Source of the DNA: an uncultured Boseongicola sp.
Lineage (GTDB): Bacteria > Actinomycetota > Acidimicrobiia > Spongiisociales > ZC4RG35
Direction of reading: 5' to 3'
Length of the DNA: 64,000 nt
Assembly: GCA_964194555.1 (NCBI GenBank)
Contig: CAXMMT010000031.1
Span: 1,338 to 65,337, forward strand
The notes beneath the pieces are model-generated. The model was not told the DNA's origin, did not search any database, and saw nothing but the letters and a program-made list of their open reading frames with translations. This document shows positions 30,784 to 59,751 of this stretch, piece after piece. Each line of letters opens with the position of its first letter. The stretch's first letter is position 1. Both the position numbers and the translations under genes were made by a program.

Positions 30784-31470
30784 CTATCCCCGACGGTCCT
30801 GACGCAGGAGTGTCCGCACCGCAGAGTTCTTCCACAGGTTTCCGAACTGCGACCACTGCCGACGCTTGTCGATAAGGCTGGCCGTCATCGAGACGGGCTC
30901 ACTGCTTCCGAAGTGGCCACTCAGTTCTGTCAGTGTGTGCTTCCAGATCTTGTCTTCGAGACGACTGGTGTAGATCCTGAAGCTGGCCTCGTAGAGAGGA
31001 TCGTTGGCCCGGACCAGCAGGTGGATGCGAGTCACCGTCTCCCCGTCGTCATCCTCGTAGGCGCTGAAGGTGATGATGGCCGCCCAGGGGTGTCCTTCGG
31101 GCGTCATGTATGACCAGGAACGCTCATCCGCATAGATGACACGAACCCCGGTGGAGATTTTGGCTGGGCCAACGCCGCCACCGATGATGGCGATCTCACC
31201 CGGTGCAATGCCCCCCGCTGGTGCGTAGAACTTGTTTGACGGATACCAGAAGTCGCCGAAGTGCTCCTTCCAGGTGGCGATCACTTTCTCCGGGGTGGGA
31301 CCCGGAATCGAAACTTCATAGGTCTTCTGCCATAGCTGACCGAACCCCTGGAGAGGTCCGGTGGGCTTGCGGCCTTCGACGTTGCCTGTGACGGCACCTT
31401 CGGCGACCTCACCTACTTTGAATTCGTCAATCGGCTTCGCCCAATTCTCGGCATCTCTTGGTTCAGACAT
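30784..31470 (-). CDS. hypothetical soluble protein (possibly DUF1990-like)
   Basis: 228 aa with high GC3. The ATG at 31470 is preceded by GGGAGAAG. The family assignment is from memory of the sequence pattern and is weak. Confidence 0.55.
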   Translation of the reverse strand: MSEPRDAENWAKPIDEFKVGEVAEGAVTGNVEGRKPTGPLQGFGQLWQKTYEVSIPGPTPEKVIATWKEHFGDFWYPSNKFYAPAGGIAPGEIAIIGGGVGPAKISTGVRVIYADERSWSYMTPEGHPWAAIITFSAYEDDDGETVTRIHLLVRANDPLYEASFRIYTSRLEDKIWKHTLTELSGHFGSSEPVSMTASLIDKRRQWSQFGNLWKNSAVRTLLRQDRRG

Positions 31471-31490
31471 CACTTCTCCCTTCACGCCAA

Positions 31491-31525
31491 GTTCTACGGG
31501 ATTGCCGTTCCGCAACCGTTACGAA
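31491..31525 (-). promoter_or_regulatory. GTAACG direct-repeat promoter, site e (upstream of 30784..31470)
   Basis: Minus strand: TTCGTAACG-gttgc-GGAACG-gcaatcccg-TAGAAC, then 20 nt containing the RBS, then the ATG at 31470. Same architecture as the sites at 35935, 36640, 37534 and 40315. Confidence 0.55.
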
Positions 31526-31573: not shown

Positions 31574-32962
31574 GTGAGCGATTTCGATACGACAATTGTC
31601 GGAGCCGGCCCCAACGGCCTGGCCGCCGCCGTGGAGATGGCCCGTGCTGGAAGGAAAGTGCTCCTGATCGAAGGAGCCGACGAGATAGGGGGAGGCACTA
31701 GGACCGAAGAGTTGACCCTTCCTGGGTTCCTACATGACGTCTGCTCGGCAGTGCACCCGGCCGGTGTCGCTTCGCCGTTCTTCAAAGAACTTGGGTTGGA
31801 TGTCGAATGGATACAGCCACCGACCCCGTTCAGCCACCCTCTCGACGGTGGCAGGTCGGTGGCTCTTCACCGCTCCGTCGGGGAGACTGCCGGTCAGTTG
31901 GGTGTCGACGAGTCCGCCTATGCCGGTTTGATGGAGCCCATGGTGAAAGGCATCGATGAGCTCATCGAAGATGTCCTCGCACCAGTAACAATCAACCCCA
32001 AACACAAGACCAAGTTCGCCCGGGTCGCCGCCATCGGCAGCCTGTCGGCATCCCTGTTGGTGAAGCGATTCAAGACCGAGGGGGCCAGAGCATTGATCGC
32101 CGGTCTGGCGGCTCACTCCATAGCACCATTCAATGCGCCGGCTACGTCCGCCGTGGGGATAATGCTCGGTGCGATTGGCCACCATTACGGCTGGCCATTG
32201 GCGAAAGGCGGTTCGATGAGCATCGCCATGGCCCTGGCAGATCGACTGGACGAACTCGGCGGCGTCATCGAGACGGGGCGATGGGTGGACGACATCCGCG
32301 AGTTGCCTGGTGAGGCTGTTCTTCTCGACGTGATGCCTCCCGCGGCCTACCGGATCGCCAAGGATCGGCTCTCCCCATCGAGTCTGCGACGGCTCCCCAG
32401 GTGGAAGCCGGGACCGGGAGTCTTCAAAGTGGATTGGGCGCTGAGCGAGCCAATCCCCTGGGCCGACCCGTTGAGCGGCCAGGCGGCCACGGTCCATGTG
32501 GGTGGCTCCTATGAGGAAGTGGAGGCCGCCGAAAGCGCCGTGTTCAAGGGAGAACACCCGGATCGGCCCTTCGTGCTGATGGCACAACAATCTCAGTTTG
32601 ATGAAACCCGTGCCCCCGACGGGAAGCACACCGCGTGGGGCTATTGCCATGTGCCCAACGGCTCGGACGTGGACATGACCGAGAACATCGAGAAACAGAT
32701 CGAGCGTTTTGCGCCCGGTTTCAGGGATGTCATCCTGGAACGGTCCACCCGGAACGCAGCTCAGTATCAGACCTACAACCCCAACTACGTAGGCGGGGAC
32801 ATCGGTGGGGGCGGGTTCGGGCTGAAGAAGATCATGCAGATGGGCGCCAAACGCCCGTATCAACTGGGCGGCGGGGTTTATCTGTGCTCATCTGCCACCC
32901 CGCCAGGCGCAGGCGTTCACGGCATGTGCGGCTATTACGCGGCGAGAGCGGCTCTAACCTGA
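31574..32962 (+). CDS. FAD/NAD(P)-dependent oxidoreductase, phytoene-desaturase (CrtI)-related
   Basis: N-terminal dinucleotide fold TTIVGAGPNGLAAAVEMARAGRKVLLIE and a C-terminal ...GGGVYLCSSATPPGAGVHG. Confidence 0.85.
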   Translation: MSDFDTTIVGAGPNGLAAAVEMARAGRKVLLIEGADEIGGGTRTEELTLPGFLHDVCSAVHPAGVASPFFKELGLDVEWIQPPTPFSHPLDGGRSVALHRSVGETAGQLGVDESAYAGLMEPMVKGIDELIEDVLAPVTINPKHKTKFARVAAIGSLSASLLVKRFKTEGARALIAGLAAHSIAPFNAPATSAVGIMLGAIGHHYGWPLAKGGSMSIAMALADRLDELGGVIETGRWVDDIRELPGEAVLLDVMPPAAYRIAKDRLSPSSLRRLPRWKPGPGVFKVDWALSEPIPWADPLSGQAATVHVGGSYEEVEAAESAVFKGEHPDRPFVLMAQQSQFDETRAPDGKHTAWGYCHVPNGSDVDMTENIEKQIERFAPGFRDVILERSTRNAAQYQTYNPNYVGGDIGGGGFGLKKIMQMGAKRPYQLGGGVYLCSSATPPGAGVHGMCGYYAARAALT

Positions 32963-32966
32963 AAAG

Positions 32967-32999
32967 GGGTATATACGATACCCACTCTTGGGTATATAC
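32967..32999 (+). promoter_or_regulatory. vapBC promoter/operator: two GGGTATATAC direct repeats, the second containing a TATACT -10
   Basis: GGGTATATAC at 32967-32976 and again at 32990-32999, each embedding the palindrome GTATATAC. TATACT ends 6 nt before the vapB ATG at 33007, which implies a leaderless mRNA. Confidence 0.5.
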
Positions 33000-33006
33000 T
33001 TCCATC

Positions 33007-33237
33007 ATGACCAAGCGTCTGATAGAAATAGATGACGAGTTGCTCGACATGGCCAGAGAACTGGCCGACGCCGAAACCATCAAAGGAACCGTGGAAGAAG
33101 CCTTGAGAAGGCTCGTCAGAATCGAATCAACCAAACTACATATCGAGGAGCTCGCTGAATCACTCGAGCCAAACGCCGTTGAGCTCCTCGAGGAATCCAG
33201 ACGCGTCAACCCGCCGCCCGGTGGCTTTCCTGATTGA
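33007..33237 (+). CDS. vapB: type II antitoxin, VapB-like (ribbon-helix-helix)
   Basis: MTKRLIEIDDELLDMARELADAETIKGTVEEALRRLV. 76 aa. Overlaps the downstream PIN gene. Confidence 0.75.
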   Translation: MTKRLIEIDDELLDMARELADAETIKGTVEEALRRLVRIESTKLHIEELAESLEPNAVELLEESRRVNPPPGGFPD

Positions 33238-33628
33238 CACGTCGGTCTGGGGGCGAGACAACCAGCCGGCTATTCAGGAGCGACTGCAAGAGTTGAATCG
33301 CGCGCAGAGCATCTGGACATGTCGGGCGGTTGATTTAGAGACTGTGTATAGCGCTCGAGCGAGAGATGCGGCGGCCCATGTTTATCGTCGGAGACTCATG
33401 CTCGACGTCCCTATCACCACGGCGATCATGGATCGCTCCCTCGACGTTACAGCCGAAATGGCTTCTGCTGGGCTCCACCGCCACGCCAAGCCAATGGACC
33501 TCATCATCGCGGCTGCAGCGGAGGCCGAGGATCTCACCGTCCTCCACTACGACCGGGATTTCGATCACATCGCCTCAGTCACCGGCCAACCAACCGAGTG
33601 GGTGGCCCCTCCCGGGAGCCTGGGCTAG
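33221..33628 (+). CDS. vapC: type II toxin, PIN-domain ribonuclease VapC
   Basis: VAFLIDTSVW (first acidic residue)...DLIIAAAAEAEDLTVLHYDRDFDHIA. The GTG at 33221 is in frame and gives a 17-nt overlap with vapB. Confidence 0.85.
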   Translation: MAFLIDTSVWGRDNQPAIQERLQELNRAQSIWTCRAVDLETVYSARARDAAAHVYRRRLMLDVPITTAIMDRSLDVTAEMASAGLHRHAKPMDLIIAAAAEAEDLTVLHYDRDFDHIASVTGQPTEWVAPPGSLG

Positions 33629-33635
33629 ACCAGCC

Positions 33636-34001
33636 CTAAGCCGCTGCAGCCGACTCCTCATCGTCGAAGATGACGATCGCCTCGTCGAGACGGGTGAGGG
33701 CAAAGATCTCCCGATAGTGCTCGGTGAGCCCGTACGCCCGCAGAGCGTGTCCGCTTCTTTGGGCCCGGATGAGAGTCGTCACCAGGAGGCCTATTCCTCC
33801 ACTATTCATGTACTCCAGTCCGGTGAAGTTGAGGATGACGGCCTTCGCTCCCTCCCCGGCGGCCTCGTGGGCCGTAGTGATTTCTTTCTCGGAGAATGAG
33901 GTGATCTCTCCTTCGATGTCGATTACCCGTACTCCGTCTCCGATGTCTCTTACATTCATGGTCAGATTTGTCGTAGGCACAGATCCCTCTCCTTGTCTCA
34001 T
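33636..34001 (-). CDS. STAS-domain anti-sigma-factor antagonist (RsbV/SpoIIAA-like), copy 2
   Basis: ILNFTGLEYMNSGGIGLLV contains the conserved phosphorylatable Ser. ATGA overlap with copy 1. Confidence 0.85.
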   Translation of the reverse strand: MRQGEGSVPTTNLTMNVRDIGDGVRVIDIEGEITSFSEKEITTAHEAAGEGAKAVILNFTGLEYMNSGGIGLLVTTLIRAQRSGHALRAYGLTEHYREIFALTRLDEAIVIFDDEESAAAA

Positions 34002-34333
34002 TTCCCCAGATTGGCGTCTTCGTAGATATGCATGAAGTCGGACAAGCGGGTGATCTGAAAGACCTCCCGATAATGCTCGGTCAGACCGTAGGCACCGACC
34101 TCTCGTGCTTCGGCCCGGGCCATTGCCAGAATCCCGACGATGACTGCGATGCCGGTCGAATTGATGTACTCGACGGCTCCAAAGTCGAGAAGAATCTCGC
34201 CAGGTGTAGCCAAGGCCTTCTCGTAGGCCTCCTCCATCCCACCTTTCGCGGCACGATTGACGACCCCGCTCAACTCAATGACAGAGCCTTTGTCTGTGGA
34301 CGTCACTGTTGCCTTAAACCCGTCCTCTGGCAT
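33998..34333 (-). CDS. STAS-domain anti-sigma-factor antagonist (RsbV/SpoIIAA-like), copy 1
   Basis: LLDFGAVEYINSTGIAVIV. Shares ...YGLTEHYRE.F..TRL... with copy 2. TAATG overlap with the upstream phosphatase-kinase gene. Confidence 0.85.
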   Translation of the reverse strand: MPEDGFKATVTSTDKGSVIELSGVVNRAAKGGMEEAYEKALATPGEILLDFGAVEYINSTGIAVIVGILAMARAEAREVGAYGLTEHYREVFQITRLSDFMHIYEDANLGK

Positions 34334-35928
34334 TAGGAATCTCCTTCCCGCTTCATCACGAGTTCGACGGTATGCGTTCCGTTCTCGCTGCTTCTCCTGA
34401 CCTCATCGACCATCTGACCGATGAGAAACAATCCCCATCCCCTGGGACTCTGGTCCCCCGCCAGCTTCGCCTCGAGATCGGGGCGCTCAGCATCGGGGAT
34501 CTCTTTGTCACCACCCTGGTCGGTGACCCTGACTGTCACTGTTGTCCCGGTAGCAGCCACTACGACTCCCACCTCGAGCTCGGCGTCGTACTCGTTGCCA
34601 TGTTCGATGGCGTTCATGACCGTCTCGCCAACTGCGGTCTTGAGGCGCTCGAACTTCGCCGGATCCAGACCCAGCGGACCCACAACATCTGCAACTTTGG
34701 TGATGGCCGTCCTCTCGTTGCCTTCCTCGCTAGCCAACGTGAAACTCGTCAAGACTTGTCCCGAGGTGGTATTGCCAAATGCCGCCGCAGCCCGCTCGGC
34801 CGATGCGGTCCTCTTCACCACTACAAGGGTGATGTCGTCTTCCTGCTCGGCGTCAGGCCCCGTCCACTTCTCCAGATCCGTGACAAGAGCGTTGACCATG
34901 TCGTCGCCCTTCGGCTTCTTGGCCACCTGACCCATCAAGCGTCCGAAGCCATACATTTCTCCTTCGATGTTGTGCGCCTCGGTGATGCCGTCGCTGGTGA
35001 GAACCATCACTTCGCCGTCCTGGAGCGCGTAGGTGCGCTCCTCGTATTCCATGTCCCTCATCAGCCCCAAAGGCATCCCGGTGGCCCTCAGCTCGATTAC
35101 GCCGTTTGCATTCCGGACATATGGAAGGTTGTGCCCGGCGTTGGCAAACACCAGATCGCCGCTCTTGGTGTCGATGATGGCGTAGAGGCACGTGACAAAC
35201 ATGGCCGGCGGAATCTCAGGAACGAGGTTGTTGTTGACATCATCGAGCACAGCCGACGGTGAGTCGTAACGCAGGGCCGCCCCCCGAAGCATTGATCGAC
35301 AGCTGGCCATCACCAGGGCCGCCGGGACACCCTTATCGGTCACGTCGCCGATGACGACGCCGAGTTTCCCCTCGCCCAGATCTATGAAGTCGTAGAAGTC
35401 GCCGCCGACGGCACGGGCGGGTCGATAGAAGGCATCGACATGCCATCCCGCAATGGTGGGAAGCTCTTTGGGTAACAGGGTCTGTTGGATCAGAGCAGCG
35501 ACCTGGAGCTCCTGGTTGATGCGCTCCATCTCCTTCGCTTCCGCTTGCTGCTCCTGAACCAACTGGGCGACCTTCATTGCCGGAGCGACCTGGGAGGCCA
35601 GACTGCCCAGAAGACGGCGATCGTCGGTCGAATAGGGCTGATCGGAGAGACGGTTGCCGAGGTAGAGGGCACCGAGCAGTTCGCCTTGACCTATCAGCGG
35701 AACAATGAGCTCGACTCCCGAGTCCTTGAGCTGGTCGATCGCATCCGAGCTGAGGTCGATGTCCTCTAACTCCACCGGACCGCCACTGGAAAGCAGAAGC
35801 GTTTCGAGCGGGTCACCCGGGGAAATGTCGATCGGGTCGATCAGCTGGGTTTTGGACGTCGCAACCGGGTCCGGAGCAGTCTCTGCAGCTCCTTCTCTCG
35901 TCTTTCGGCGCTTTCTGAGCGACTCCAT
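34333..35928 (-). CDS. fusion protein: partial GAF, PP2C/SpoIIE phosphatase and RsbW/SpoIIAB-type HATPase (anti-sigma kinase-like)
   Basis: PP2C motifs GGDFYDF, GDVTDKGVPAAL, LTSDGITEA and EDDITLVVV. The C-terminal 130 aa carry the N-box VMNAIEHGN and the G-box RGWGLFLI. Confidence 0.85.
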   Translation of the reverse strand: MESLRKRRKTREGAAETAPDPVATSKTQLIDPIDISPGDPLETLLLSSGGPVELEDIDLSSDAIDQLKDSGVELIVPLIGQGELLGALYLGNRLSDQPYSTDDRRLLGSLASQVAPAMKVAQLVQEQQAEAKEMERINQELQVAALIQQTLLPKELPTIAGWHVDAFYRPARAVGGDFYDFIDLGEGKLGVVIGDVTDKGVPAALVMASCRSMLRGAALRYDSPSAVLDDVNNNLVPEIPPAMFVTCLYAIIDTKSGDLVFANAGHNLPYVRNANGVIELRATGMPLGLMRDMEYEERTYALQDGEVMVLTSDGITEAHNIEGEMYGFGRLMGQVAKKPKGDDMVNALVTDLEKWTGPDAEQEDDITLVVVKRTASAERAAAAFGNTTSGQVLTSFTLASEEGNERTAITKVADVVGPLGLDPAKFERLKTAVGETVMNAIEHGNEYDAELEVGVVVAATGTTVTVRVTDQGGDKEIPDAERPDLEAKLAGDQSPRGWGLFLIGQMVDEVRRSSENGTHTVELVMKREGDS

Positions 35929-35934
35929 GATCCC

Positions 35935-35969
35935 TTTCTACCTCGCCAGCGTTCCGAAAACGTTACGAG
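35935..35969 (-). promoter_or_regulatory. GTAACG direct-repeat promoter, site a (partner-switching operon, predicted leaderless)
   Basis: Minus strand: CTCGTAACG-ttttc-GGAACG-ctggcgagg-TAGAAA-gggatc-ATG(35928). The -10-like hexamer ends 6 nt before the ATG. Confidence 0.6.
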
Positions 35970-36112: not shown

Positions 36113-36607
36113 CTATCCCACCGCCGTTGGTGTTTCCACAAGGTTGGTGTTGGTGGAAACGAGTCGGGCTCCCAGAAGCTCAGACATGGCCGCGCACCCT
36201 TCACGCATGACGTTGTGATGGGCCCGGACCAGAATCGGCTTGGCGAATCCAGCGACGAAGTTCATCCACGGCTTCGTCGTCGACACATACCAATTGAACC
36301 TGACATGGGTCTGATTATCGCGAGTCTCCAGTAGGTAGGTGCCCGTCCCGATCAGGTCGCCTCGAATAACACTCTTGATCCTGACAGGCCGATCCACCTC
36401 GACCACCTTTGCCTCGAAATCCATCGCGTAACCAAGCGGGCTCCTGATCGAGTAGGAGGCGCGAGTACCCAACCCGTCGGCGCCCCCCTCGTCGAGCAGC
36501 CTGGAGTTCTTGACCGACGGCCACCAGGCCGAGAATTTCTCCGGATGTTCTAGGACCTCATAGACCTTTTCGATCGGTGCGGTAAGCACCCACTCCGTTT
36601 CGAACAT
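36113..36607 (-). CDS. SRPBCC (START/Bet v1-like, polyketide cyclase/dehydrase fold) protein
   Basis: MFETEWVLTAPIEKVYEVLEHPEKFSAWWP is a typical SRPBCC N-terminus. The ATG at 36607 follows GGAAGGAGGG. Longer starts at 36688 and 36802 are possible but would cover promoter site b. Confidence 0.7.
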   Translation of the reverse strand: MFETEWVLTAPIEKVYEVLEHPEKFSAWWPSVKNSRLLDEGGADGLGTRASYSIRSPLGYAMDFEAKVVEVDRPVRIKSVIRGDLIGTGTYLLETRDNQTHVRFNWYVSTTKPWMNFVAGFAKPILVRAHHNVMREGCAAMSELLGARLVSTNTNLVETPTAVG

Positions 36608-36639
36608 GTAATGGACCACTTGTCCCTCCTTCCACTCTT

Positions 36640-36675
36640 CGTTATCGCACGTGCCCGCTACAGGATCGTTACGAG
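36640..36675 (-). promoter_or_regulatory. GTAACG direct-repeat promoter, site b (upstream of the SRPBCC gene)
   Basis: Minus strand: CTCGTAACG-atcctg-GTAGCG-ggcacgtgc-GATAAC, then a 5'UTR with the GGAAGGAGGG RBS, then the ATG at 36607. The inter-repeat spacer is one nt longer than at the other sites. Confidence 0.45.
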
Positions 36676-36714
36676 AGGGTTGAAACATGGTTCCAAGTCC
36701 GCCAAGTTGGGGGC

Positions 36715-37029
36715 GTGACTTCATTAGAGCCGGCTCGCCACGCTTTGTATGCTGTACTCGAGGACGTCCTCGGAACCGAGCACGCCGAAACACTGATGAC
36801 ACATCTACCCCAACACGAGTCCGACCAAGTGGCCACCAAGGCCGATCTGGGAAGGGTCGAGACGCGGATAGATGACAGGTTCGATCGCATGGAGGATCGT
36901 TTCGATGAACGTTTCAACCGGATGGAAGTTCGGATTGACAAGATGAACCGCAACTTCATCACTGTCTCCTTCGGCACCCTCACCGTGATGACCGCAATCT
37001 TCGCCTTCCTCACGAAGATGTGGGTGTAG
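36715..37029 (+). CDS. tail-anchored coiled-coil protein, paralog 1 (DUF1640-like pattern)
   Basis: GTG start. EPARHALYAVLEDVLGTEHAETLMTHLPQHESDQVATKADL, then RF-heptads (DRFDRME DRFDERF NRMEVRI DKMNRNF), then one C-terminal TM helix. Confidence 0.65.
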   Translation: MTSLEPARHALYAVLEDVLGTEHAETLMTHLPQHESDQVATKADLGRVETRIDDRFDRMEDRFDERFNRMEVRIDKMNRNFITVSFGTLTVMTAIFAFLTKMWV

Positions 37030-37084
37030 AGCCTCCTTCCCATAGGTCTTGAAACCGTCTGACCAGGGCGGCATAGTCGAACCA

Positions 37085-37438
37085 ATGTCATCAGTAGAAC
37101 CAGCCCGTCACGCCCTGTACTCTGTTCTCGAGAATGTTCTCGGCGAGCAACACGCGGACACCCTGATGACACATCTTCCCCAACACGAGTCCGAGGAGGT
37201 CACCACCAAATCGGACCTGAAGGTCCTGGAGGACAGTGTTGATGGGCGATTCAATATCGTGGACGAGCGATTCAATCGGGTCGACGAGCGATTTGATCGC
37301 ATGGAAGACAGGTTTGACGCACTCAACCTTCGATTCGATGCCCTCCATCAGACACTGCACACGCAGTTCAGGAACTACACCGTGACAATGGTGGGTGCCA
37401 TGACCGCGCTGACAGCCATCTACACCTTCCTCAACTAG
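37085..37438 (+). CDS. tail-anchored coiled-coil protein, paralog 2
   Basis: MSSVEPARHALYSVLENVLGEQHADTLMTHLPQHESEEVTTKSDL, five xRF(D/N)xxx heptads and a C-terminal TM helix. The track start at 37049 adds 12 aa that are absent from paralog 1. Confidence 0.65.
   Translation: MSSVEPARHALYSVLENVLGEQHADTLMTHLPQHESEEVTTKSDLKVLEDSVDGRFNIVDERFNRVDERFDRMEDRFDALNLRFDALHQTLHTQFRNYTVTMVGAMTALTAIYTFLN
37244..37348 (+). repeat. five tandem 21-nt units encoding xRF(D/N)xxx heptads inside paralog 2
   Basis: gggcgattcaatatcgtggac / gagcgattcaatcgggtcgac / gagcgatttgatcgcatggaa / gacaggtttgacgcactcaac / cttcgattcgatgccctccat. Confidence 0.8.
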
Positions 37439-37533: not shown

Positions 37534-37568
37534 GCCGTAACGGTACGGTTATCTTCCCGCACGAGAAG
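37534..37568 (+). promoter_or_regulatory. GTAACG direct-repeat promoter, site c (upstream of the SARP regulator; possible autoregulation)
   Basis: GCCGTAACG-gtacg-GTTATC-ttcccgcac-GAGAAG. This is the most degenerate of the five sites. Confidence 0.4.
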
Positions 37569-37613
37569 AGAGGAACCGAACTGCTCGACATACGGCTAAT
37601 TGGCCCACCCGAA

Positions 37614-40313
37614 GTGACTCTCGAAGGCTTGCACGTCGAGGTTGACACCCGAAAGGCCATCGCTCTGCTCGCGTACCTCGCCGTCGAACACACCGCCTCG
37701 AGGGACACGCTCTCGACACTTTTCTGGGTCGACTCGCCCACAGATCGAGCCCGAGCCACGCTACGCCGTACTCTTTCCTCTCTCCGATCAGGGGTCGGGA
37801 GCGACGCCATAGCGGCCGACCGTCATAGCGTCTCACTTGAAGACGGCGCGGGCATCGACCTTGCCCATTTCGAACAGGCTCTCGGAGAGATGGCCAACCA
37901 CGACCACGGGCCAGAAGAAGTCTGCCCCATGTGTATTCCTCACCTCCGCAAGGCCACCGCCCTTTACAGGGGGGACTTCCTCGAGGGCTTCTCGGTTCGT
38001 GACGCTCCGGGGTTTGAGGATTGGGCGCGAAACATCACCGAATCTCTCAGAATGAAGGCTGGCGAGACCTTCCATCGTCTTGGCATGGCGCTTGCTGCCG
38101 ACGGTGACTATCCATCGGCAATCGCCGCTGTTTCACGATGGGTCGAACTCGATGAACTGCACGAACCCGCCCATCGCCTTCTCATGCTGTTGAACGCCTG
38201 GGCGGGTGACCGACCCGGCGCTGTGGAGGCCTATCGGAACTTCGTCGCAATCCTCGACCGGGAGCTTGGCGTTCCACCTCTCGATGAGACCACCGAGCTC
38301 CACGAGGCAATCCTCGACGAGGATCTGCCACCAGCGCCTGGCCTGCGGCGCCGAATCAGAGCCGCTTCACGGATCACGCCGAAGGGCGATGACTTGCTAG
38401 ATCGCCTGGACGAAATGCAATCGCTTCGCGATGCTCTGGGATCGATCGGCTCTCGGGGGGATGTCGTGTCTGTCTCCGGGACTGCATGGATGGGAAAAAC
38501 CCGACTCCTCGAGGAACTCGCCTCCGAAGCAAGAGGTAGCGGAACCGGAGCACTGATCGGCAGGTCGTTTCGAATGGAGCAAGGTCTTCCCTACGGGGTG
38601 GCCACCCAGATCCTTCGTAGCGGAGAGACACTCATCAAGGCGAGCGAAGGCGAAATCCCGCCGTGGGCTCTGATCGAGGCGTCCCGGCTCGACCCGTCTT
38701 TGGCTTCGAGCAACTCACCGGCCGACTTTGACCGATTTGGCGAGCTCCGACTGTTCGAAGCTGTATACGAGATCCTCTCAGTCGTCTCCCACTCCCGGCC
38801 TCTTCTCCTCATCGCCGATGACATTCAGTGGATCGACTCCGCCTCGGCTTCCTTGTTGTCGTATTTGGGACACCGCATCGGCGATCTCCGGGTCCTCATG
38901 CTGCTGGCACACAGGGCGGGAGACCCCCTTCCCGACGCAATCGGCGATGTCATCGGTTCGGCCCTGGAGGTGAAACTGGCTCCTTTGACCCCAGATGACT
39001 TGAAGATGGTTGTCGAAGACTCCGATCGGGCAATCGAGATCATCGCTCAGACCGGAGGTGTCCCCCTTCTCGCCCGTGAGGCGATCGCAGTAGATGGCAA
39101 GGGCAGCGACGACCTCTCCGGTGTCGAGCGCTACATGGAGTCAAAGTTGCGCGATGCCAGCGAGTTGAGCAAGCAGGTCCTGGCAACTGCGGCCGTCCTT
39201 ACCGGCGTATGCGATGCGTCTCTACTGAAAAGGACATCGGGAAGATCGGAAGAGGAGGTGGTCGAGGCCGTCGAGGAGCTGATAGGTATCGGACTGCTCC
39301 GCGAAGTTCCTGAGGGCGATGGACTCAGTTTCACACTCGATTCGCTGGAGAAATTGTCGTACGACTCTTTGTCGCTGATACGACGGCGTCTGCTGCATCG
39401 TCGGGCTGGCGAAGCTCTTGCAGACAGACCTCGTTCCGCCACCGACCCTCTTCTTGCTGCAGGTGTGGCCGCCCAGTTCCGCGGAGCCGGTGATCCCCGG
39501 GCAGCCGACTGGTATCGCGTCGCAGGTGACCTGGCGCGCGGTGTCTATGCCAACGCCGAGGCTCACAGCTTCTACGAAGCAGCGATCGCCCTCGGATCGG
39601 TTGCCGTTGGCGAGCTGCGTTTGGGTCTCGCCGATCTGGCGATGACAAGGGGGGACTACACAACTGCGATCCAGGAGCTGACTGCTGCGGCCGCACAGTC
39701 CGACGGCGAATTACTGGGGATTATCGAGCACAGGCTCGGTGACGCCAATCGACTGCTCGGCCGCTTCGACATGGCAGCCGAGCATTTTCAACGATCCGTC
39801 GAAACACATCCCGAACTCGCGGGGCTCTACGCCGATTGGGCTCTTCTCGAACAGCGTATGGGCAACACGGAGAACGCTTTCGCCATGGCCGAGAAGGCTA
39901 GAGCCGCCGCAGACGAATCTGCCAACGACCTGGTCCGGTCGCGCGTTCTGAATGTCTCCGGCATCGTGGCCGACGATCCGGCGGTCGCTATGCAGTACCT
40001 GGATGAGGCGCTGCAGCTCGCCGGTGACGATGAGTTGGCCAGGATGGCCGTTCTGAACAACCGCGCCCACCTACTGCTCCAGATCGGCAATGGCGACGGG
40101 GCCATTCGTCTGATCGAGGAGGCGATCGGGATCGCGGCGAGCACAGGTCACCGGCATCGCGAGGCGGCACTTCACAATCATCTAGCTGACCTTCATCACA
40201 TCGCCGATCGTGAGAGTGAGGCCGAAGCGGCGATGACAGAGGCGGTTGCCCTGTTTGCCGACATCGACGCAGGAGCGTGGGAGCCCGAACTGTGGCTGTT
40301 GTCCAGATGGTGA
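37614..40313 (+). CDS. SARP-family regulator: OmpR-type winged helix, BTAD, AAA/NB-ARC-like ATPase and TPR (AfsR-like STAND architecture)
   Basis: RKAIALLAYLAVE...LSTLFW...RATLRRTLSSLR (wHTH), LYRGDFLEGF...E.AHR.LM......GDRPGAVEAYR.F...L..ELGVPP (BTAD) and Walker A GTAWMGKTRLL, followed by about 350 aa of TPR-like repeats. The N-terminus probably extends upstream of the GTG at 37614 (see findings). Confidence 0.85.
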   Translation: MTLEGLHVEVDTRKAIALLAYLAVEHTASRDTLSTLFWVDSPTDRARATLRRTLSSLRSGVGSDAIAADRHSVSLEDGAGIDLAHFEQALGEMANHDHGPEEVCPMCIPHLRKATALYRGDFLEGFSVRDAPGFEDWARNITESLRMKAGETFHRLGMALAADGDYPSAIAAVSRWVELDELHEPAHRLLMLLNAWAGDRPGAVEAYRNFVAILDRELGVPPLDETTELHEAILDEDLPPAPGLRRRIRAASRITPKGDDLLDRLDEMQSLRDALGSIGSRGDVVSVSGTAWMGKTRLLEELASEARGSGTGALIGRSFRMEQGLPYGVATQILRSGETLIKASEGEIPPWALIEASRLDPSLASSNSPADFDRFGELRLFEAVYEILSVVSHSRPLLLIADDIQWIDSASASLLSYLGHRIGDLRVLMLLAHRAGDPLPDAIGDVIGSALEVKLAPLTPDDLKMVVEDSDRAIEIIAQTGGVPLLAREAIAVDGKGSDDLSGVERYMESKLRDASELSKQVLATAAVLTGVCDASLLKRTSGRSEEEVVEAVEELIGIGLLREVPEGDGLSFTLDSLEKLSYDSLSLIRRRLLHRRAGEALADRPRSATDPLLAAGVAAQFRGAGDPRAADWYRVAGDLARGVYANAEAHSFYEAAIALGSVAVGELRLGLADLAMTRGDYTTAIQELTAAAAQSDGELLGIIEHRLGDANRLLGRFDMAAEHFQRSVETHPELAGLYADWALLEQRMGNTENAFAMAEKARAAADESANDLVRSRVLNVSGIVADDPAVAMQYLDEALQLAGDDELARMAVLNNRAHLLLQIGNGDGAIRLIEEAIGIAASTGHRHREAALHNHLADLHHIADRESEAEAAMTEAVALFADIDAGAWEPELWLLSRW

Positions 40314-40314
40314 T

Positions 40315-40350
40315 CTCGTAACGGTCCGGTAACGCGGCGCCTGGCAATAT
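40315..40350 (+). promoter_or_regulatory. GTAACG direct-repeat promoter, site d (upstream of the tandem membrane paralogs)
   Basis: CTCGTAACG-gtccg-GTAACG-cggcgcctg-GCAATAT. It starts 2 nt after the SARP stop codon. The ATG at 40361 lies about 11 nt after the -10-like element. Confidence 0.55.
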
Positions 40351-40459
40351 CGAGGTCTCAATGGCTCAAACAAAACGCGTTTCGTGGTTGCTACTTGTCG
40401 CGTGACTCGTCTTCGCCGTCTCGGTCGTCGCTTCAGTAGTCCTATGGCCAACCATCCAC

Positions 40460-41455
40460 GTGTTCCTGGGACTCGTTGCCAACACGCTCATATTGGTCAG
40501 CGGGTCGATAATCGTCTTGAAGGCCGACCAACAAACCATCGGCTGGATTCTTGTCTTCCTCGGTCTCATTTTCATGATCACTGGGGGAGTCTTGCTGGGT
40601 ATTCAGAACGCCTATCAAACCCAATGGACGCGCGTGGTGACCGAGGCAGGAATTGGCGGACTGTGGCTGTTCATCTACCTGATATTGATCTTCCCCAGCG
40701 GTGAACTACCCACCCGCTTCTCGAGAGTGCTGCTTTGGATCGCCGGCATCGGGGCGATCGCTCTTTCAATTGTCGGCGTTCGAACCGCTCTCTTCTACGG
40801 CGAGGGCGGTTACGCCGAGAGTTTTTTGGGCGTGGTCTTTTTCGCAGTTCTGATGCTTGCCGCCATTGTGATTCACCTCGTCCATCTTCGTTATCGGAGC
40901 TCTATTGAGAAGCGTCAGCTCAAGTGGTTCATCTTTGCCCTGAATGTCACCATGTCGCTCTACTTGGTCGCGAGCGCCTTTGGCGTACCCGAGACCACAT
41001 TCCTAGTGATCGACGCCTTTGCCACTTCGTTTTGGCCAATCGCGATCCTCATCGCCATCACCCGCCATCGCCTATACGACATCGACCGCATTGTTTCGAG
41101 AACCGCCTCATACGCCATCGTGGTTGGTCTGCTCGCAGCGGTCTTCTTTGGCGTCGTGACCGCGGTGACAGCCCTACTCCCGACACAGAACGCGCTTGCG
41201 GTGGTTGGATCGACTCTTGTTGTGGCGGCCCTCTTCAACCCGGTGCGTCTCCGAGTCCAGCAGTGGGTGGATCGACGGTTCAACCGGAGCCATTACGAGG
41301 CGCAAGGTGTCATCGACTCTTTTGCAGCCACCCTTCAGGACGAGCCAGCTATCGAAAACCTCGTCGAACGTCTCCAAGCGGTCGTGATCGAGACAATGGG
41401 CCCATCGTTGACCGGCACATGGGATAACACTGGCGTCGGCAATGACACCTCCTGA
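40460..41455 (+). CDS. polytopic membrane protein with a sensor-kinase-like N-terminal module but no kinase domain, paralog 1
   Basis: About 8 TM helices, then ITRHRLYDIDRIVSRTASYAIVVG...ALFNPVRLRVQQWVDRRFNRSHYEA.... The GTG at 40460 is the first start after an in-frame TGA. The homologous N-terminus begins at the ATG at 40361 (see findings). Confidence 0.65.
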   Translation: MFLGLVANTLILVSGSIIVLKADQQTIGWILVFLGLIFMITGGVLLGIQNAYQTQWTRVVTEAGIGGLWLFIYLILIFPSGELPTRFSRVLLWIAGIGAIALSIVGVRTALFYGEGGYAESFLGVVFFAVLMLAAIVIHLVHLRYRSSIEKRQLKWFIFALNVTMSLYLVASAFGVPETTFLVIDAFATSFWPIAILIAITRHRLYDIDRIVSRTASYAIVVGLLAAVFFGVVTAVTALLPTQNALAVVGSTLVVAALFNPVRLRVQQWVDRRFNRSHYEAQGVIDSFAATLQDEPAIENLVERLQAVVIETMGPSLTGTWDNTGVGNDTS

Positions 41456-43112: not shown

Positions 43113-43490
43113 ATGCCGCTTCTCGACCTGTTCTGGTCCATGCTCTGGTTCTTTATGTTCTTCGTGTGGATCTGGCTGCTGATCACGATCTTTGCCGACA
43201 TCTTCCGCAGCGAAATCTCTGGCTTTGGCAAGGCGGGCTGGATCCTCTTCGTGATAGTCCTTCCCTTCCTCGGAGTCCTCATCTATCTGATCGCCAATGG
43301 CGACACGATGCAGGAGCGCTCCATGAAGCAGGCTTCCGATATGGCGAACGCGCAGCGCGACTACATCCAATCTGTTGCCGGTGATAGTTCGTCGGCTGCT
43401 GACGAGATCGCCAAGCTCGCTTCACTGAAGGACTCCGGTGCCATCAGCGACGCCGAGTTCCAGGCGCAGAAGGCCAAGCTTCTCGCTTAG
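43113..43490 (+). CDS. PLDc_N-domain membrane protein with C-terminal SHOCT domain
   Basis: WFFMFFVWIWLLITIFADIFRS...GKAGWILFVIVLPFLGVLIYLI is the PLD-nuclease N-terminal TM pair. The C-terminus LASLKDSGAISDAEFQAQKAKLL is a SHOCT motif. GGAGG RBS. Confidence 0.8.
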   Translation: MPLLDLFWSMLWFFMFFVWIWLLITIFADIFRSEISGFGKAGWILFVIVLPFLGVLIYLIANGDTMQERSMKQASDMANAQRDYIQSVAGDSSSAADEIAKLASLKDSGAISDAEFQAQKAKLLA

Positions 43491-55718: not shown

Positions 55719-58147
55719 ACGTATCCGTTCTTCTCCAGCCACCTCATCGAGAAGAACCCGGCACCCGACGGGATGTAGAAGGTTGCCACTCTGTAGATGA
55801 CAGCGGCCGCAAAGGCAGTGGTCTCATCCACGCCAAAAACAACCAGGAACGCGGTCAACACTGCCTCTGAAACCCCAACGCCGCCTGGAATCGGAACCAG
55901 GCCTCCGAGAAGTCCAGTGGCCACCGTCGCAGTGAGCACCGACCAGATCCCGAGGGAGACATCGAGACTGAGCAGTATGAGCCACAAACTCAGGGCCAGG
56001 ACGAACCGGGAGCCAAAGTTGCTGGCGAGCAGTCCCAAGGTCCTCTTGGGATCCTTGAGAACATCGCGGAACGCACCCAGCGCCTCTCCGAGAATCGGCA
56101 ACACCCAATCTCGAAGCCGCTGCACCCTCCGGACGAGATACACGACCAGGAGAACAACTCCGATCAAGACCAGAAGAACCACACCCCACTCCGTCTCACC
56201 CGATGTGAGACCAAAGCTGACACTGCCCGATACGACTGCGAGAACCAGAATCACCACTTCCAACAGCAATCCTGAAAGAGTGTCTATCGACCCCTGCACC
56301 AGGGCCGACGTGAATGAAACCCCATACTTCCTGAGGAAAGCGGCGGTCATGGCGATTCGGCCCGCCGAACTGGGAACCGCGAGGGAGATGAACTTGATGG
56401 CCGATTGGAGAATCACCACCGGGCGAAGTGGGATCGGATAACCAACCGCAGCGAGCATGGCGGTTGCCTCGGGGAAGTAGACGAACTGCCCCACGATGAA
56501 AGCAACGACGATGAAAGCCCAATCCGCGTCTTGAACTTCTTCCCAGACGGCGACAAAGTCGATATCCGCCAACAGTGAGATCAAGAAGTAGACGGCAAAC
56601 AGGGACACCGCCATCATCGCCAGGTTCTTTCCCTGCACCCGTCGTATCTGCACCTGATCCTCGGTTTCCGAGGAGGTGACCCTGGCTACCTCGTCATACA
56701 CTTCACGCACGAACACCTTCGGCTTGGAGAGAGCTCGGCGTTCGGCGGCACTTACGCCTGGCATTTGTATGTAGGGGAGAGACGTGGACAGAACCTCATC
56801 TCCCAGACCCTGTCGCGCGCTCGCCACGACCCCCTCCACGCCGAACAATCGGGACATCGAAACAAGAAGCTCAACTATGTCGAGGGAGAGAGCAGACTCG
56901 GGACCGGCCACAACTCCGGCTCCAAAGTCACCGATCTGATGACCTTGGGGCGTGATCGTAATAGCTGAGCACCGGAGCGCCCCGTGGGAGATGCGGCCTT
57001 CGTGAAGCTGACGCACCGACCGCCAGATCGAGACGAGCTGATCTTGAGATATCTCCCCGGATTTCATTTCGGAGAGCCGGCGGCCCGACCTGTCGACGGC
57101 CAGGACAGCCATGTCGTCACCGCCCATTCCCGCTGCCAGCACTCGCGGCACGGAGGCTCCGGTCCGCTCGGCCATCAGGGTCACAAGCGCCTCGTGCTCC
57201 ACGCTTTGCATCCGAGTCAGCGCCAGGGACGGGGTGGTATCCCGGTACCAGAGATACCTCCAGGTACGAGCGAACAACTGTGAGTCGGTCGAGTCTCTTC
57301 CGTACGCTTTGACCTCCACACGACCGTGGGCGTCGCTGGCTCCAATAAGCCGCCTCACGCCCCAAGATTGATCGTCGTCCAACTCCAGGTCGAAAATATC
57401 CACACCCAGCCCACGCAACGCCGACGCGATCGAGCCGGTGTCAGGGAATCCACGGGGAGATCCGAAGATCAACAACACGATGGCCGAGGCACCTGCCCCA
57501 AGACCAAAGGCACCAAATGCGCTACTCGGGAGACCGAGTCCGAGGCCAACGCCTGCTGCACCAACAGCCAGTATCACGCCCCATCCGAGTCGACGCATGG
57601 GTCTGGTGAGATGGGGAGCCACCACGAGCAGCATCGCGGTAACGACGGCCACCCGGAAGATCGGGAACTGGGAGATGGGCTCGGCAAGTCCGAGTTCGGG
57701 AAGAAACCGTGGCCAACTCCCGCTTATCAGCCGAACCAGGGTTGTCGCCAGTGCTGCAACTGTGAAGGTGACCAGGACCATGTCCCGAGCGGCATCCAGC
57801 CTGTGCTTCCATTGAACCAGCACGACCAGGAAAATCCCGACGACGTAAAAGAACCCTGCGGTGTACACAACCGAGATAGTCCCGGCGAGCCAATCCGGGA
57901 CGGCTCCGACAACCTCCGACACGGTGGCCTCGACATCAGCGACTTTGAGATACGACCGCCATGACCACAGGAAGAGCAGGACTCCCAAAGCCAAACCGGT
58001 GGCATCGGCGGCTCGACGCACCCGAGGCTGCTCGGTCGCGGGGATGAGGTACCTGCTGCGAGTGACAGCTACTCCTCTCCGTTGAGGTTTTCGTTGAGCC
58101 AAGCGGTCGCCTCCTCGTGGGCGCGGACCACCGTCGACCCGACCCAT
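55715..58147 (-). CDS. membrane protein: N-terminal TM block, cytoplasmic kinase-like (probably inactive) domain and C-terminal LPG-synthase-TM/flippase-like (UPF0104) domain
   Basis: The C-terminal 330 aa resemble the MprF-type TM domain family. The central region has ...LHEGRISHGALRCSAITITPQGHQIGDFGAG, i.e. HG-A-L where PKL kinases have HGDL, with DFG retained. The start is uncertain: 58147 overlaps SulP, and the GTG at 58021 is an alternative. Confidence 0.65.
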   Translation of the reverse strand: MGRVDGGPRPRGGDRLAQRKPQRRGVAVTRSRYLIPATEQPRVRRAADATGLALGVLLFLWSWRSYLKVADVEATVSEVVGAVPDWLAGTISVVYTAGFFYVVGIFLVVLVQWKHRLDAARDMVLVTFTVAALATTLVRLISGSWPRFLPELGLAEPISQFPIFRVAVVTAMLLVVAPHLTRPMRRLGWGVILAVGAAGVGLGLGLPSSAFGAFGLGAGASAIVLLIFGSPRGFPDTGSIASALRGLGVDIFDLELDDDQSWGVRRLIGASDAHGRVEVKAYGRDSTDSQLFARTWRYLWYRDTTPSLALTRMQSVEHEALVTLMAERTGASVPRVLAAGMGGDDMAVLAVDRSGRRLSEMKSGEISQDQLVSIWRSVRQLHEGRISHGALRCSAITITPQGHQIGDFGAGVVAGPESALSLDIVELLVSMSRLFGVEGVVASARQGLGDEVLSTSLPYIQMPGVSAAERRALSKPKVFVREVYDEVARVTSSETEDQVQIRRVQGKNLAMMAVSLFAVYFLISLLADIDFVAVWEEVQDADWAFIVVAFIVGQFVYFPEATAMLAAVGYPIPLRPVVILQSAIKFISLAVPSSAGRIAMTAAFLRKYGVSFTSALVQGSIDTLSGLLLEVVILVLAVVSGSVSFGLTSGETEWGVVLLVLIGVVLLVVYLVRRVQRLRDWVLPILGEALGAFRDVLKDPKRTLGLLASNFGSRFVLALSLWLILLSLDVSLGIWSVLTATVATGLLGGLVPIPGGVGVSEAVLTAFLVVFGVDETTAFAAAVIYRVATFYIPSGAGFFSMRWLEKNGYV

Positions 58148-59751
58148 TCATCCGAGGTGTATATGTTCTCCGACCCCAGCAAGCCCGCCACACCTGTCGC
58201 TATCAACTGGTCGTGAACACGCTCGTCGGCATAGATGAGCGCCAATTTGCTGTCGACCTCCAGCAGGGAACTGGCGTATCGGCTGAGAACGTCCATGAAT
58301 GTGGAGCCCAGATCTGACTTGCCACGCAGCCGGACTATAACCACAGAGTTCCTCGAAGAACCGGTAACGGCTGGCATCTCCTCTTCGAAAACGGGCGCCG
58401 ACGCGAAGAAAAGACTGCCGTAAGGCTGCAGAACAATGACCTCGTTGGGCCCAACTTCCGCTGGTGCGTCAACTTCGCGAATGCGGCCGTTCTCCTTGAC
58501 GATCCAGCGTCTAACGGAGATTCGATTCGACTGCTTGATCACGAAGAGGATCAATGAGATTCCGATGCCCACCAGTACCGCGTTCTGGAGAGGGATGATC
58601 ATGGTGAGGACAAAGGTGACGGACATGACCACCGCCTGAGTGTTACCCGTGCGCCACACAGCTTTGATGTCGCCCGGCTTCACCGTTCGATAGCCGACGA
58701 TCATCAAGAGGCCGGCCAACGCAGGCATCGCGATGTAGCCAACGGCGTCGCCGAGCAACAGGATGGATACGGCCATCACCGCTCCCGCGATCACCATCGC
58801 GGCCTTCGAACGAGCGCCCGCCTCTTTCACCAGCGAACTCGCCGACATCGACCCGCCAACTGGCATGCCCTGGAATATTCCCGCGGCCACGTTGGCAGCA
58901 CCCTGCCCCACAAAGTCCTGGCTGGCATCGGGAAACTCGCCGTCCGGATTTGGGAAACTCGCCGATATACCCGCCCCCTGCACAAGGCCCACAAAGGCCA
59001 GGGCGGCAGCAGGAAGCAGCAACCCGGGAATCAGCCTCAGATCGGGCCACATCGGAAGGGGCAGGGATCCTGGGATTTCGGTGATGTCACGAAGTTGCTG
59101 GACATCCCAACCAACAAGCGGCACCACTATCGACGTAACGATGATCGCCGCCACCATCCCCAGCGTGCCGAGACGTGTCTTCTCGAAGACGATGATCAGG
59201 ACGATGGTGGTGGCGCCAATCAACATCGAAGGCCAATGGGCCTGACCAAGGTTGAATAGGAGGTCGAAGGCCCTGACCACACGGTTGGCGCCTTCGGCCT
59301 CGTAGCCGCTGAAGTTGTCCAACTGACCGAGCACGATGTTGATACCCACCGCGTTGATGAATCCGACCATCACCGAGTTGGACACCCAGCGGAGTAACGA
59401 GCCAAGCTTGAAGAGTCCCGCAGCGAGCATGACAGCACCAGTAACCACGGCAAGGGTGAACAAGGCCCGCTCGGGATCTTCGCCTCCGTGAACGGCGGGC
59501 ACATCGGCAACGATGATCGCCATCGCCCCGGTGGCCTGTACCGCCATGAATGTGGCGCTGGTGAAAAATGCCCCAGTCACGGTCCCAACCATGTAGCCGT
59601 ACAACCCGAACACCGGGTTCACCCCGGCGAGAAGCCCACCGGCGAGACCATCGGGCACACTCACCACACCCAGCGCCAGACCCGCAACGGCGTCCTCGCG
59701 CAACGTCTCCCGGTTGAAGAGCGAGCGAGTCCAGAGTTTGAGTCGGTCCAT
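58069..59751 (-). CDS. SulP-family anion transporter with C-terminal STAS domain
   Basis: LREDAVAGLALGVVSVPDGLAGGLLAGVNPVFGLY. 560 aa. Confidence 0.9.
   Translation of the reverse strand: MDRLKLWTRSLFNRETLREDAVAGLALGVVSVPDGLAGGLLAGVNPVFGLYGYMVGTVTGAFFTSATFMAVQATGAMAIIVADVPAVHGGEDPERALFTLAVVTGAVMLAAGLFKLGSLLRWVSNSVMVGFINAVGINIVLGQLDNFSGYEAEGANRVVRAFDLLFNLGQAHWPSMLIGATTIVLIIVFEKTRLGTLGMVAAIIVTSIVVPLVGWDVQQLRDITEIPGSLPLPMWPDLRLIPGLLLPAAALAFVGLVQGAGISASFPNPDGEFPDASQDFVGQGAANVAAGIFQGMPVGGSMSASSLVKEAGARSKAAMVIAGAVMAVSILLLGDAVGYIAMPALAGLLMIVGYRTVKPGDIKAVWRTGNTQAVVMSVTFVLTMIIPLQNAVLVGIGISLILFVIKQSNRISVRRWIVKENGRIREVDAPAEVGPNEVIVLQPYGSLFFASAPVFEEEMPAVTGSSRNSVVIVRLRGKSDLGSTFMDVLSRYASSLLEVDSKLALIYADERVHDQLIATGVAGLLGSENIYTSDEWVGSTVVRAHEEATAWLNENLNGEE

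Follow-up and report, generated by a model that had tools for sequence, protein, structure and literature searches.

Phosphatase and kinase activities joined in one protein are known from the HsbR-HsbA system of Pseudomonas aeruginosa, the CrsR-CrsA system of Shewanella and the SypE-SypA system of Vibrio fischeri, where a PP2C domain and an RsbW-like kinase act from a single chain towards a STAS protein. These systems have a REC input and a single STAS protein, and their output is not always a linked sigma factor. Here, we analyze a partner-switching module encoded in 64,000 nucleotides (nt) of DNA from an uncultured Boseongicola sp. placed by GTDB in the Acidimicrobiia (assembly GCA_964194555.1, contig CAXMMT010000031.1, positions 1,338 to 65,337). 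This whole stretch is referred to below as the window; it is part of a 70-kb contig (C31) of a 2.1-Mb, 100-contig metagenome-assembled genome (MAG) with a completeness of 84%. The core of the module is a protein in which a partial GAF domain is followed by a PP2C/SpoIIE phosphatase domain and an RsbW/SpoIIAB-type kinase domain (the fusion), and whose gene is accompanied by the genes of two STAS proteins, STAS1 and STAS2. On the basis of sequence comparisons, the partial GAF appears to belong to a domain split between genes; the missing N-terminal portion, helix α1 and strand β1, would reside at the C termini of members of a membrane protein family.

Compared to the HsbR, CrsR, and SypE systems, the module of the window is distinguished by its putative split-GAF input, fed by membrane proteins, and by its two STAS proteins. 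A studied PP2C-kinase(-STAS) fusion is Rv1364c of Mycobacterium tuberculosis (PAS-PP2C-GHKL kinase-STAS; Protein Data Bank [PDB] entry 3ke6), which is reported to act both as a kinase and as a phosphatase on its own STAS domain (PMC7693655, citing Greenstein 2009). Rv1364c and the window fusion share the order of these domains, with the RsbW-like kinase immediately after the PP2C domain in the same chain. In Rv1364c, however, the PAS sensor is complete, the STAS domain is fused at the C terminus, and the protein is discussed as a SigF regulator, while the window encodes a half GAF and two separate STAS proteins, together with membrane paralogs and a SARP-type regulator but no linked sigma factor. 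GAF- or PAS-linked PPM phosphatases of the RsbU/RsbP/RsbZ type share with the fusion the succession of sensor, long helical linker, and PPM domain (PMC12143880); their sensor is complete and lies in the same chain, and their kinase is separate, whereas the fusion has half a GAF and carries the kinase itself. The last group comprises uncharacterized unsplit sensors of the transmembrane (TM)-GAF-SpoIIE(-HATPase_c_2) type (P0123/L045, P0150, P0154, P0208, P0229, and P0230), which are homologous to the full length of both window proteins, from the membrane body and juxtamembrane motif through the GAF, linker, and PP2C to the kinase. They are single polypeptides with an intact GAF; in the window, by contrast, the two halves are separated at the loop that follows GAF strand β1, and the membrane half is multiplied.

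The partial GAF and the tails of the membrane proteins

The Pfam GAF match in the fusion starts at position 45 or 47, depending on the search, and ends at position 132 of the 133 in the profile. A miscalled start hiding the remainder of the domain was ruled out, since the open frame is just 3 codons longer (534 amino acids), and no GAF-like sequence was found downstream of the membrane genes. Pfam searches of the fusion returned neither a PAS domain, the N terminus being half a GAF, nor a Response_reg (REC) match; a weak match to NF045505 (RssB) was limited to the PP2C part.

The genome encodes one fusion and six membrane paralogs, two in the window and four elsewhere. The family had no significant match in Pfam or NCBIfam and is annotated solely as hypothetical. 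All members combine a polytopic body with a juxtamembrane block that is conserved. Its tails follow the consensus ...DLxxLxxxLxxVVxETMQPxxVSLWLR, with the stop codon 0 to 7 residues later in most of ~220 members. When the tail of the 385–amino acid paralog was joined to the N terminus of the fusion, the GAF match extended to profile positions 1 to 132, and the scores rose from 36.3 to 43.7 bits for GAF and from 27.0 to 35.9 bits for GAF_3. With the four other tails from the same genome, the match to PF01590 started at positions 1 to 15 and scored 37.2 to 40.3 bits, a gain of 0.9 to 4.0 bits; the GAF_3 match was lengthened by just three of these four. In a control with five shuffled tails, the GAF match started at positions 39 to 44 and the score did not increase. 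A GAF complete within one polypeptide was found when the tail was added, or in contiguous relatives, but not in the fusion itself.

Such relatives carry both halves in one chain. In L045/P0123 (919 to 939 amino acids), the membrane family aligns through its last residue, the fusion resumes 9 residues on, and the Pfam GAF match crosses the junction (profile positions 1 to 132). Nearly all of the 120 listed matches to the joined tail and GAF span 100% of it in one chain; they include TM-GAF-SpoIIE and TM-GAF-PAS-SpoIIE proteins, as well as TM-GAF-SpoIIE-HATPase_c_2 proteins of 894 to 1067 amino acids. A joint alignment places the end of the membrane paralogs after the WLR strand (...ETMQPxxVSLWLR) and the beginning of the fusion in the next variable loop. 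By alignment, then, the fusion and the membrane tails are homologous to intact single-chain sensors. L045 was also considered as a read-through artifact, which is unlikely, as the ~25-residue leader present in the split proteins is missing from it and many independent contiguous relatives exist.

In the AlphaFold2 (AF2) model of the contiguous protein, helix α1 (residues 379 to 394) and strand β1 (residues 399 to 403) have predicted local distance difference test (pLDDT) values of 89 to 95, the remaining GAF is at 96 to 97, and a 50-residue linker helix runs from the GAF into the PP2C domain. When the fusion was modeled alone, the half-GAF consisted of two helices and a β-hairpin (pLDDT of 83 to 88), and leader residues 1 to 24 were disordered. 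Among paralogs from the same locus, identity is 35% in the membrane body but reaches 77% in the juxtamembrane block and 61% in the GAF fragment.

The distribution of the two gene families was followed in a sample of 401 genomes across the phylum. The membrane family was present in 60 of 60 fusion-positive genomes and in 48 of 341 fusion-negative ones, there mostly as weak matches. Synteny was surveyed in the best 80 of 427 loci with fusion relatives in reference genomes (51 to 74% identity, full length), where the window proteins and 13 sigma factors of the genome itself were compared with all open reading frames (ORFs). Denominators are given as the loci that reach far enough from the fusion: 74 for the STAS genes, 67 for ≥3 kb upstream, and 52 for ≥8 kb upstream. 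A membrane paralog lay within 10 kb in 59 of 67 loci, and tandem arrays of up to nine were common.

In our view, these data make it probable that a single bifunctional enzyme serves several membrane sensors through the split GAF and sets the phosphorylation of the STAS proteins. A number of observations weigh against this. The GAF gains from real tails are modest (1 to 9 bits), and the co-occurrence (Fisher P of 7e-42) is uncorrected for phylogeny. In eight of the 67 loci, the nearest 10 kb are free of membrane paralogs; in the window, the membrane genes lie outside the fusion operon, after the SARP gene on the other strand, and four paralogs are located elsewhere. AF2 still models the lone half-GAF at the pLDDT given above, and the predicted half-domain may be stable, or may dimerize, without a donated strand. 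We infer complementation of the GAF in trans from sequences and single-chain models. Last, the output partner is only a candidate, and a completeness of 84% leaves room for an unlinked SigB/F-type sigma factor.

Some of these observations would also fit membrane paralogs and a fusion that are co-regulated without contact, the half-GAF being a self-sufficient dimerization or linker module and the tails being a remnant or serving another partner. The fair AF2 model of the lone half-GAF, the four unlinked paralogs of the six in the genome, and the 48 fusion-negative genomes that keep weak membrane-family matches all speak for such an arrangement, which we nevertheless consider improbable. A remnant tail would not hold 61 to 77% identity while the bodies drift to 35%, nor would it stop at the same residue in ~220 members. 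The half-GAF would have to do without a strand that the contiguous relatives model with high pLDDT. The co-occurrence is complete among fusion-positive genomes, the genes are usually adjacent and co-directional, and the matches in fusion-negative genomes, being mostly weak, may be contiguous sensors.

Two further observations concern membrane proteins. Upstream of the 331–amino acid paralog, an ATG-initiated homologous N terminus, MAQTKRVSWLLLVA (positions 40361 to 40459), ends at an in-frame stop after 14 codons, and the ORF restarts at GTG 40460; this first paralog may be a pseudogene or a truncated family member, or the stop may be a sequencing error. A small membrane protein with a SHOCT-like C terminus (…LKDSGAISDAEFQAQKAKLL), recognized by eye, is encoded after the membrane paralogs (positions 43113 to 43490). 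In the literature collection searched, no paper on a “split GAF” was found, and a paper on S-components and 5TMR proteins (PMC11109136) proved unrelated.

The phosphatase-kinase fusion and the two STAS proteins

In Pfam, the fusion matched SpoIIE (PF07228) at 2e-51 and HATPase_c_2 (PF13581) at 8.8e-19, so that the C-terminal domain passes the kinase model. NCBIfam searches gave partial SpoIIAB/RsbW-type matches at the C terminus (TIGR01925, 1.7e-12, under the equivalog cut-off). Among solved structures, the best sequence matches were the SiaA PP2C domain and, as the best match spanning two domains, Rv1364c (3ke6, query residues 156 to 481); the PP2C domain matched the PDB entries of SiaA, RssB, and SpoIIE, and the C terminus aligned to SpoIIAB and RsbW. 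The fold search (Foldseek) likewise returned the RsbU and RsbW domains of Rv1364c in 3ke6 as the top hit (E value of 7.8e-17), with a TM-score of 0.8 between the kinase domain and the SpoIIAB fold. In an alignment of 55 fusion orthologs (51 to 94% identity), the PP2C metal-binding aspartates D177, D180, D195, D313, D364, and D365 were invariant, as were the kinase residues E435 and N439 (N box), D470 and G472 (G1), and G497 and G499 (G2). The composition described in the first-pass annotation, a 531–amino acid chain of partial GAF, PP2C/SpoIIE, and a C-terminal ATPase of the anti-sigma kinase type, is thus borne out.

That annotation had also set the union of kinase and phosphatase in one chain apart from canonical modules; such a union is not unusual. 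The homolog search gave at least 8000 matches, and the best 120, from which the architecture was read, all have the same architecture and come mostly from Acidimicrobiia. Homologs already bear names such as “SpoIIE family protein phosphatase,” “ATP-binding SpoIIE family protein phosphatase,” and “RsbU/anti-sigma regulatory factor.” Because of these homologs, their existing names, and the studied Rv1364c, the PP2C-kinase fusion is a known and very common kind of protein, and the fused chain alone is no novelty. In its own genome, no protein other than the fusion matches HATPase_c_2 or SpoIIE strongly. A variant family (f24; for example, G284:C96:2916-4016 and G245:C8:6628-7737) matches query residues ~8 to 389 in frames of ~397 to 459 amino acids. 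It has the half-GAF and PP2C without a kinase domain, and its kinase may be encoded by a separate gene.

Both small proteins passed the STAS model (PF01740) and had anti-sigma-antagonist matches in NCBIfam. Their candidate phospho-site serines align with the serine of the YMDSAGLG/YMDSTGLG motif in TM1442 and RsbV, which is the phospho-serine of those proteins. The earlier statement that two paralogous STAS proteins keep a phosphorylatable serine agrees with the ortholog alignments, in which the candidate residue is invariant in 76 of 76 sequences of STAS1 and 76 of 76 of STAS2. The gene junctions, described as TAATG and ATGA overlaps, fared differently. The first is real, the STAS1 start overlapping the fusion stop. 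The ATGA overlap between STAS1 and STAS2 is present in the DNA, but the first five STAS2 residues are absent from the orthologs, and the GTG at 33980 is preceded by a Shine-Dalgarno sequence, GGAGAGGG. For these two reasons, STAS2 probably starts at that GTG, with a product of 114 amino acids, and the true STAS1-STAS2 junction is probably a short gap. STAS1 was found downstream of the fusion in 72 of 74 loci and STAS2 in 73 of 74. A 560–amino acid ORF with a C-terminal STAS domain (positions 58069 to 59751) is probably a SulP-type transporter unrelated to the partner-switch STAS genes.

The conserved cluster and the candidate outputs

The features of the module and of its surroundings are listed below.

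Table 1. Coordinates of the module, its neighbors, and the direct-repeat boxes in the window.
Feature	Position	Strand	Remarks
Fusion protein, 531 amino acids	34333..35928	-	Half-GAF/PP2C/RsbW-like kinase; ORF and Pfam
Fusion: disordered basic leader	residues 1-24		
Fusion: C-terminal two-thirds of GAF	residues ~31-118		
Fusion: long linker helix	residues 101-151		
Fusion: PP2C/SpoIIE domain	residues 186-373		
Fusion: RsbW/SpoIIAB-type GHKL kinase	residues 402-523		
STAS1, 111 amino acids	33998..34333	-	Predicted phospho-site Ser59 in YINSTGIA
STAS2, 121 amino acids as longest ORF	33636..34001	-	Predicted phospho-site Ser in YMNSGGIG
Membrane paralog, 385 amino acids	41442..42599	+	Polytopic body, juxtamembrane motif (...FNPLRIRVQRGVDRRFNR...), GAF α1-β1, end ...VGVWIRD-stop
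Membrane paralog, 331 amino acids from GTG	40460..41455	+	Same tail; homologous upstream N terminus broken by in-frame stop
SARP-type regulator (BTAD, AAA_16 ATPase, TPR), 899 amino acids from first GTG	37614..40313	+	
SRPBCC/polyketide-cyclase-fold protein	36113..36802	-	Directly upstream of fusion; likely start ATG 36607
unk243, 243–amino acid weak DUF1990-like protein	30784..31515	-	Likely start ATG 31470
CrtI/amine-oxidase-superfamily FAD oxidoreductase	31574..32962	+	Constant neighbor of unk243
Direct repeat GTAACGTTTTCGGAACG, 11-bp spacing	35950..35966	-	3′ end 21 nt before fusion ATG; putative SARP box/-35 region
Perfect direct repeat GTAACGGTCCGGTAACG	40318..40334	+	Between SARP stop and membrane paralogs
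Perfect box	31506-31522		Precedes unk243
One-mismatch box	36656-36672		At SRPBCC gene

The cluster shared among the surveyed loci comprises the SARP gene, one to nine membrane paralogs, the fusion, STAS1, STAS2, unk243, and the CrtI-like flavoenzyme. The SARP regulator was present in 44 of 52 loci, unk243 in 59 of 64, and the flavoenzyme in 38 of 53, while the SRPBCC gene was limited to the closest Acidimicrobiia loci. All-against-all clustering of the locus ORFs revealed no conserved family beyond the seven named, the other clusters being antisense ORFs. The match of unk243 to DUF1990 (19.4 bits) is under the Pfam cut-off of 23, and a PDB sequence search with this protein gave no match. Taxonomically, the best 80 loci are spread over Acidimicrobiia, Thermoleophilia, Propionibacteriales (among them the cultured Kribbella antiqua, K. 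steppae, and K. orskensis; loci L052, L053, and L079), and one Chloroflexota MAG.

The membership of this cluster bears on what the STAS proteins may control. As candidate outputs, the first-pass annotation had named the SARP regulator and the neighboring tail-anchored proteins. The SARP gained support from synteny and from a conserved direct-repeat box; the tail-anchored coiled-coil proteins (positions 36715 to 37438) were rejected, a TA2-like gene occurring in 2 of 80 loci and four other paralogs being scattered in the genome on contigs C62, C68, and C33. What that annotation had missed, besides the split GAF, is the constant association of the DUF1990-like gene and the CrtI-like flavoenzyme gene with the STAS genes.

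A pattern of direct repeats in tandem, spaced by 11 bp, overlapping the -35 region of target genes and located beside a SARP gene, fits SARP-dependent promoters. The box pattern tested was GTAACG-N5-GNAACG, a direct repeat with this spacing. The window contains seven matches with at most one mismatch versus 0.69 expected, and three of them are perfect, upstream of the fusion operon, the 243–amino acid gene, and the membrane paralogs. Across all 80 loci, 47 perfect boxes were counted in 1.29 Mb, compared to a naive expectation of ~0.4. Forty-five of the 47 lie just upstream of cluster genes and on their strand: 24 before unk243, 14 before the fusion, 5 before membrane genes, and 1 each before the SRPBCC and SARP genes. 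In the 14 loci with a box before the fusion, the fusion heads its own transcription unit, and the box sits at about -38, mostly 28 to 37 nt ahead of the start. The cluster appears to be a regulon of the adjacent SARP, acting through these putative boxes. At the SARP gene of the window, a single GTAACG is located at 37537, near the start, and the sequence before the first canonical start codon, the GTG at 37614 (positions 37534 to 37616), still seems to resemble the first strand of the DNA-binding domain.

The arrangement of the two companion genes suggests another output, in which the STAS proteins, depending on their phosphorylation state, would bind and control the DUF1990-like protein, the CrtI-like flavoenzyme, or both, and thereby exert metabolic or lipid-modifying control in place of transcriptional control via the SARP or a sigma factor. 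In 37 of 63 loci, unk243 lies downstream of STAS2 in the same orientation, with a median gap of 47 nt, and the flavoenzyme is next in 20 of those; in 22 other loci, a divergent flavoenzyme/unk243 pair abuts STAS2. This regularity, together with the near-constant presence of unk243, gives the enzymes some claim, but as the sole output we think them unlikely. Co-regulation by the SARP explains the co-location equally well, given the boxes before unk243; the DUF1990 assignment is below threshold; and an interaction between STAS proteins and enzymes is a proposal from gene position.

As to sigma factors, the first-pass annotation had reported none in the 64 kb, and this extends to all 70 kb of contig C31, where Sigma70_r2 had no match, all 14 matches in the genome being on other contigs. 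It had also allowed that orthologs might consistently adjoin a sigma gene lying outside the window; in the survey, a sigma gene was present within 10 kb in 4 of 80 loci, at inconsistent positions, and a sigma factor just beyond the window is thereby ruled out. At the level of gene linkage only, then, no cognate sigma factor is adjacent. In the assembly, no SigB/F/G-type sigma reached the family cut-off (best score of 131 bits versus 234), and the sole group-3 sigma is of the WhiG/FliA type.

A classical partner switch, with the RsbW-like domain as anti-sigma for an unlinked sigma factor, perhaps in the unassembled 16%, and the STAS proteins as anti-anti-sigma factors, is the least probable of the alternatives. 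In its favor, models and structures of SpoIIAB and RsbW match the kinase domain, partner-switch and sigma genes are unlinked in many actinobacteria, and the completeness of the genome is 84%. It is opposed by the sub-threshold SigB/F/G-type scores, by the WhiG/FliA type of the only group-3 factor, and by the 80 loci, which span three classes and two phyla and in which sigma genes are rare and variously placed and the constant neighbors are instead the SARP gene, the membrane paralogs, and the two enzymes.

Several side observations concern the loci themselves. Between STAS2 and the flavoenzyme gene, the window carries a vapB/vapC (PIN) pair (positions 32962 to 33628), which looks like an insertion into the cluster because PIN (VapC) matches were found in 0 of 80 orthologous loci. 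The full cluster, with membrane paralogs, fusion, STAS1, STAS2, the 243–amino acid gene, and the flavoenzyme, is present in a Candidatus Limnocylindria MAG of the Chloroflexota (L050, JBOGTE010000036.1), which represents either cross-phylum spread or a binning error. Eight loci (L004, L006, L011, L013, L014, L021, L024, and L073) have Acidimicrobiia-like clusters in MAG records titled “uncultured Acidobacteriota” or “Gammaproteobacteria,” and the taxon labels of these records look unreliable.

Proposed mechanism, origin, and significance

We propose that the module is of the partner-switching type, with a Rv1364c-like chain of PP2C and RsbW-like serine kinase and two separate STAS proteins. 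A membrane paralog would donate its α1-β1 tail to the soluble enzyme, whose GAF would thus become complete. The state of this domain would then travel along the long coiled-coil linker to the PP2C domain; signaling from GAF, PAS, or REC domains to PPM domains through such a linker has been proposed as general (PMC12143880). As a result, the balance of dephosphorylation versus phosphorylation at the invariant serine of STAS1 and STAS2 would shift, and the STAS proteins would act on a partner other than a linked sigma factor. Among possible partners, the SARP itself and the co-operonic pair of DUF1990-like protein and flavoenzyme are the best candidates. The direction of signaling, the enzymatic activities, and the output are parts of the scheme that we infer.

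The most likely origin of the arrangement is fission of a single-chain TM-GAF-PP2C-kinase sensor in the variable GAF loop, after which the membrane half was multiplied. In its full form, the proposal is that the split GAF serves as a plug-in connector, through which one to dozens of membrane receptors per genome feed one sigma-independent partner switch whose STAS outputs are the SARP or the DUF1990-like/flavoenzyme pair. We advance this full form tentatively, giving it somewhat less than an even chance.

The module is a well-defined case of a partner switch that has no linked sigma factor and is tied instead to a SARP and two uncharacterized enzymes. The cluster is widespread, in Acidimicrobiia, Thermoleophilia, Propionibacteriales including Kribbella, and at least one Chloroflexota MAG, and its membrane components are all annotated as hypothetical. 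If the proposal is correct, a sensor domain divided between genes, with its membrane half multiplied, would be a new wiring of many inputs into one switch, in which domain complementation would replace phosphotransfer or stressosome-type scaffolding.

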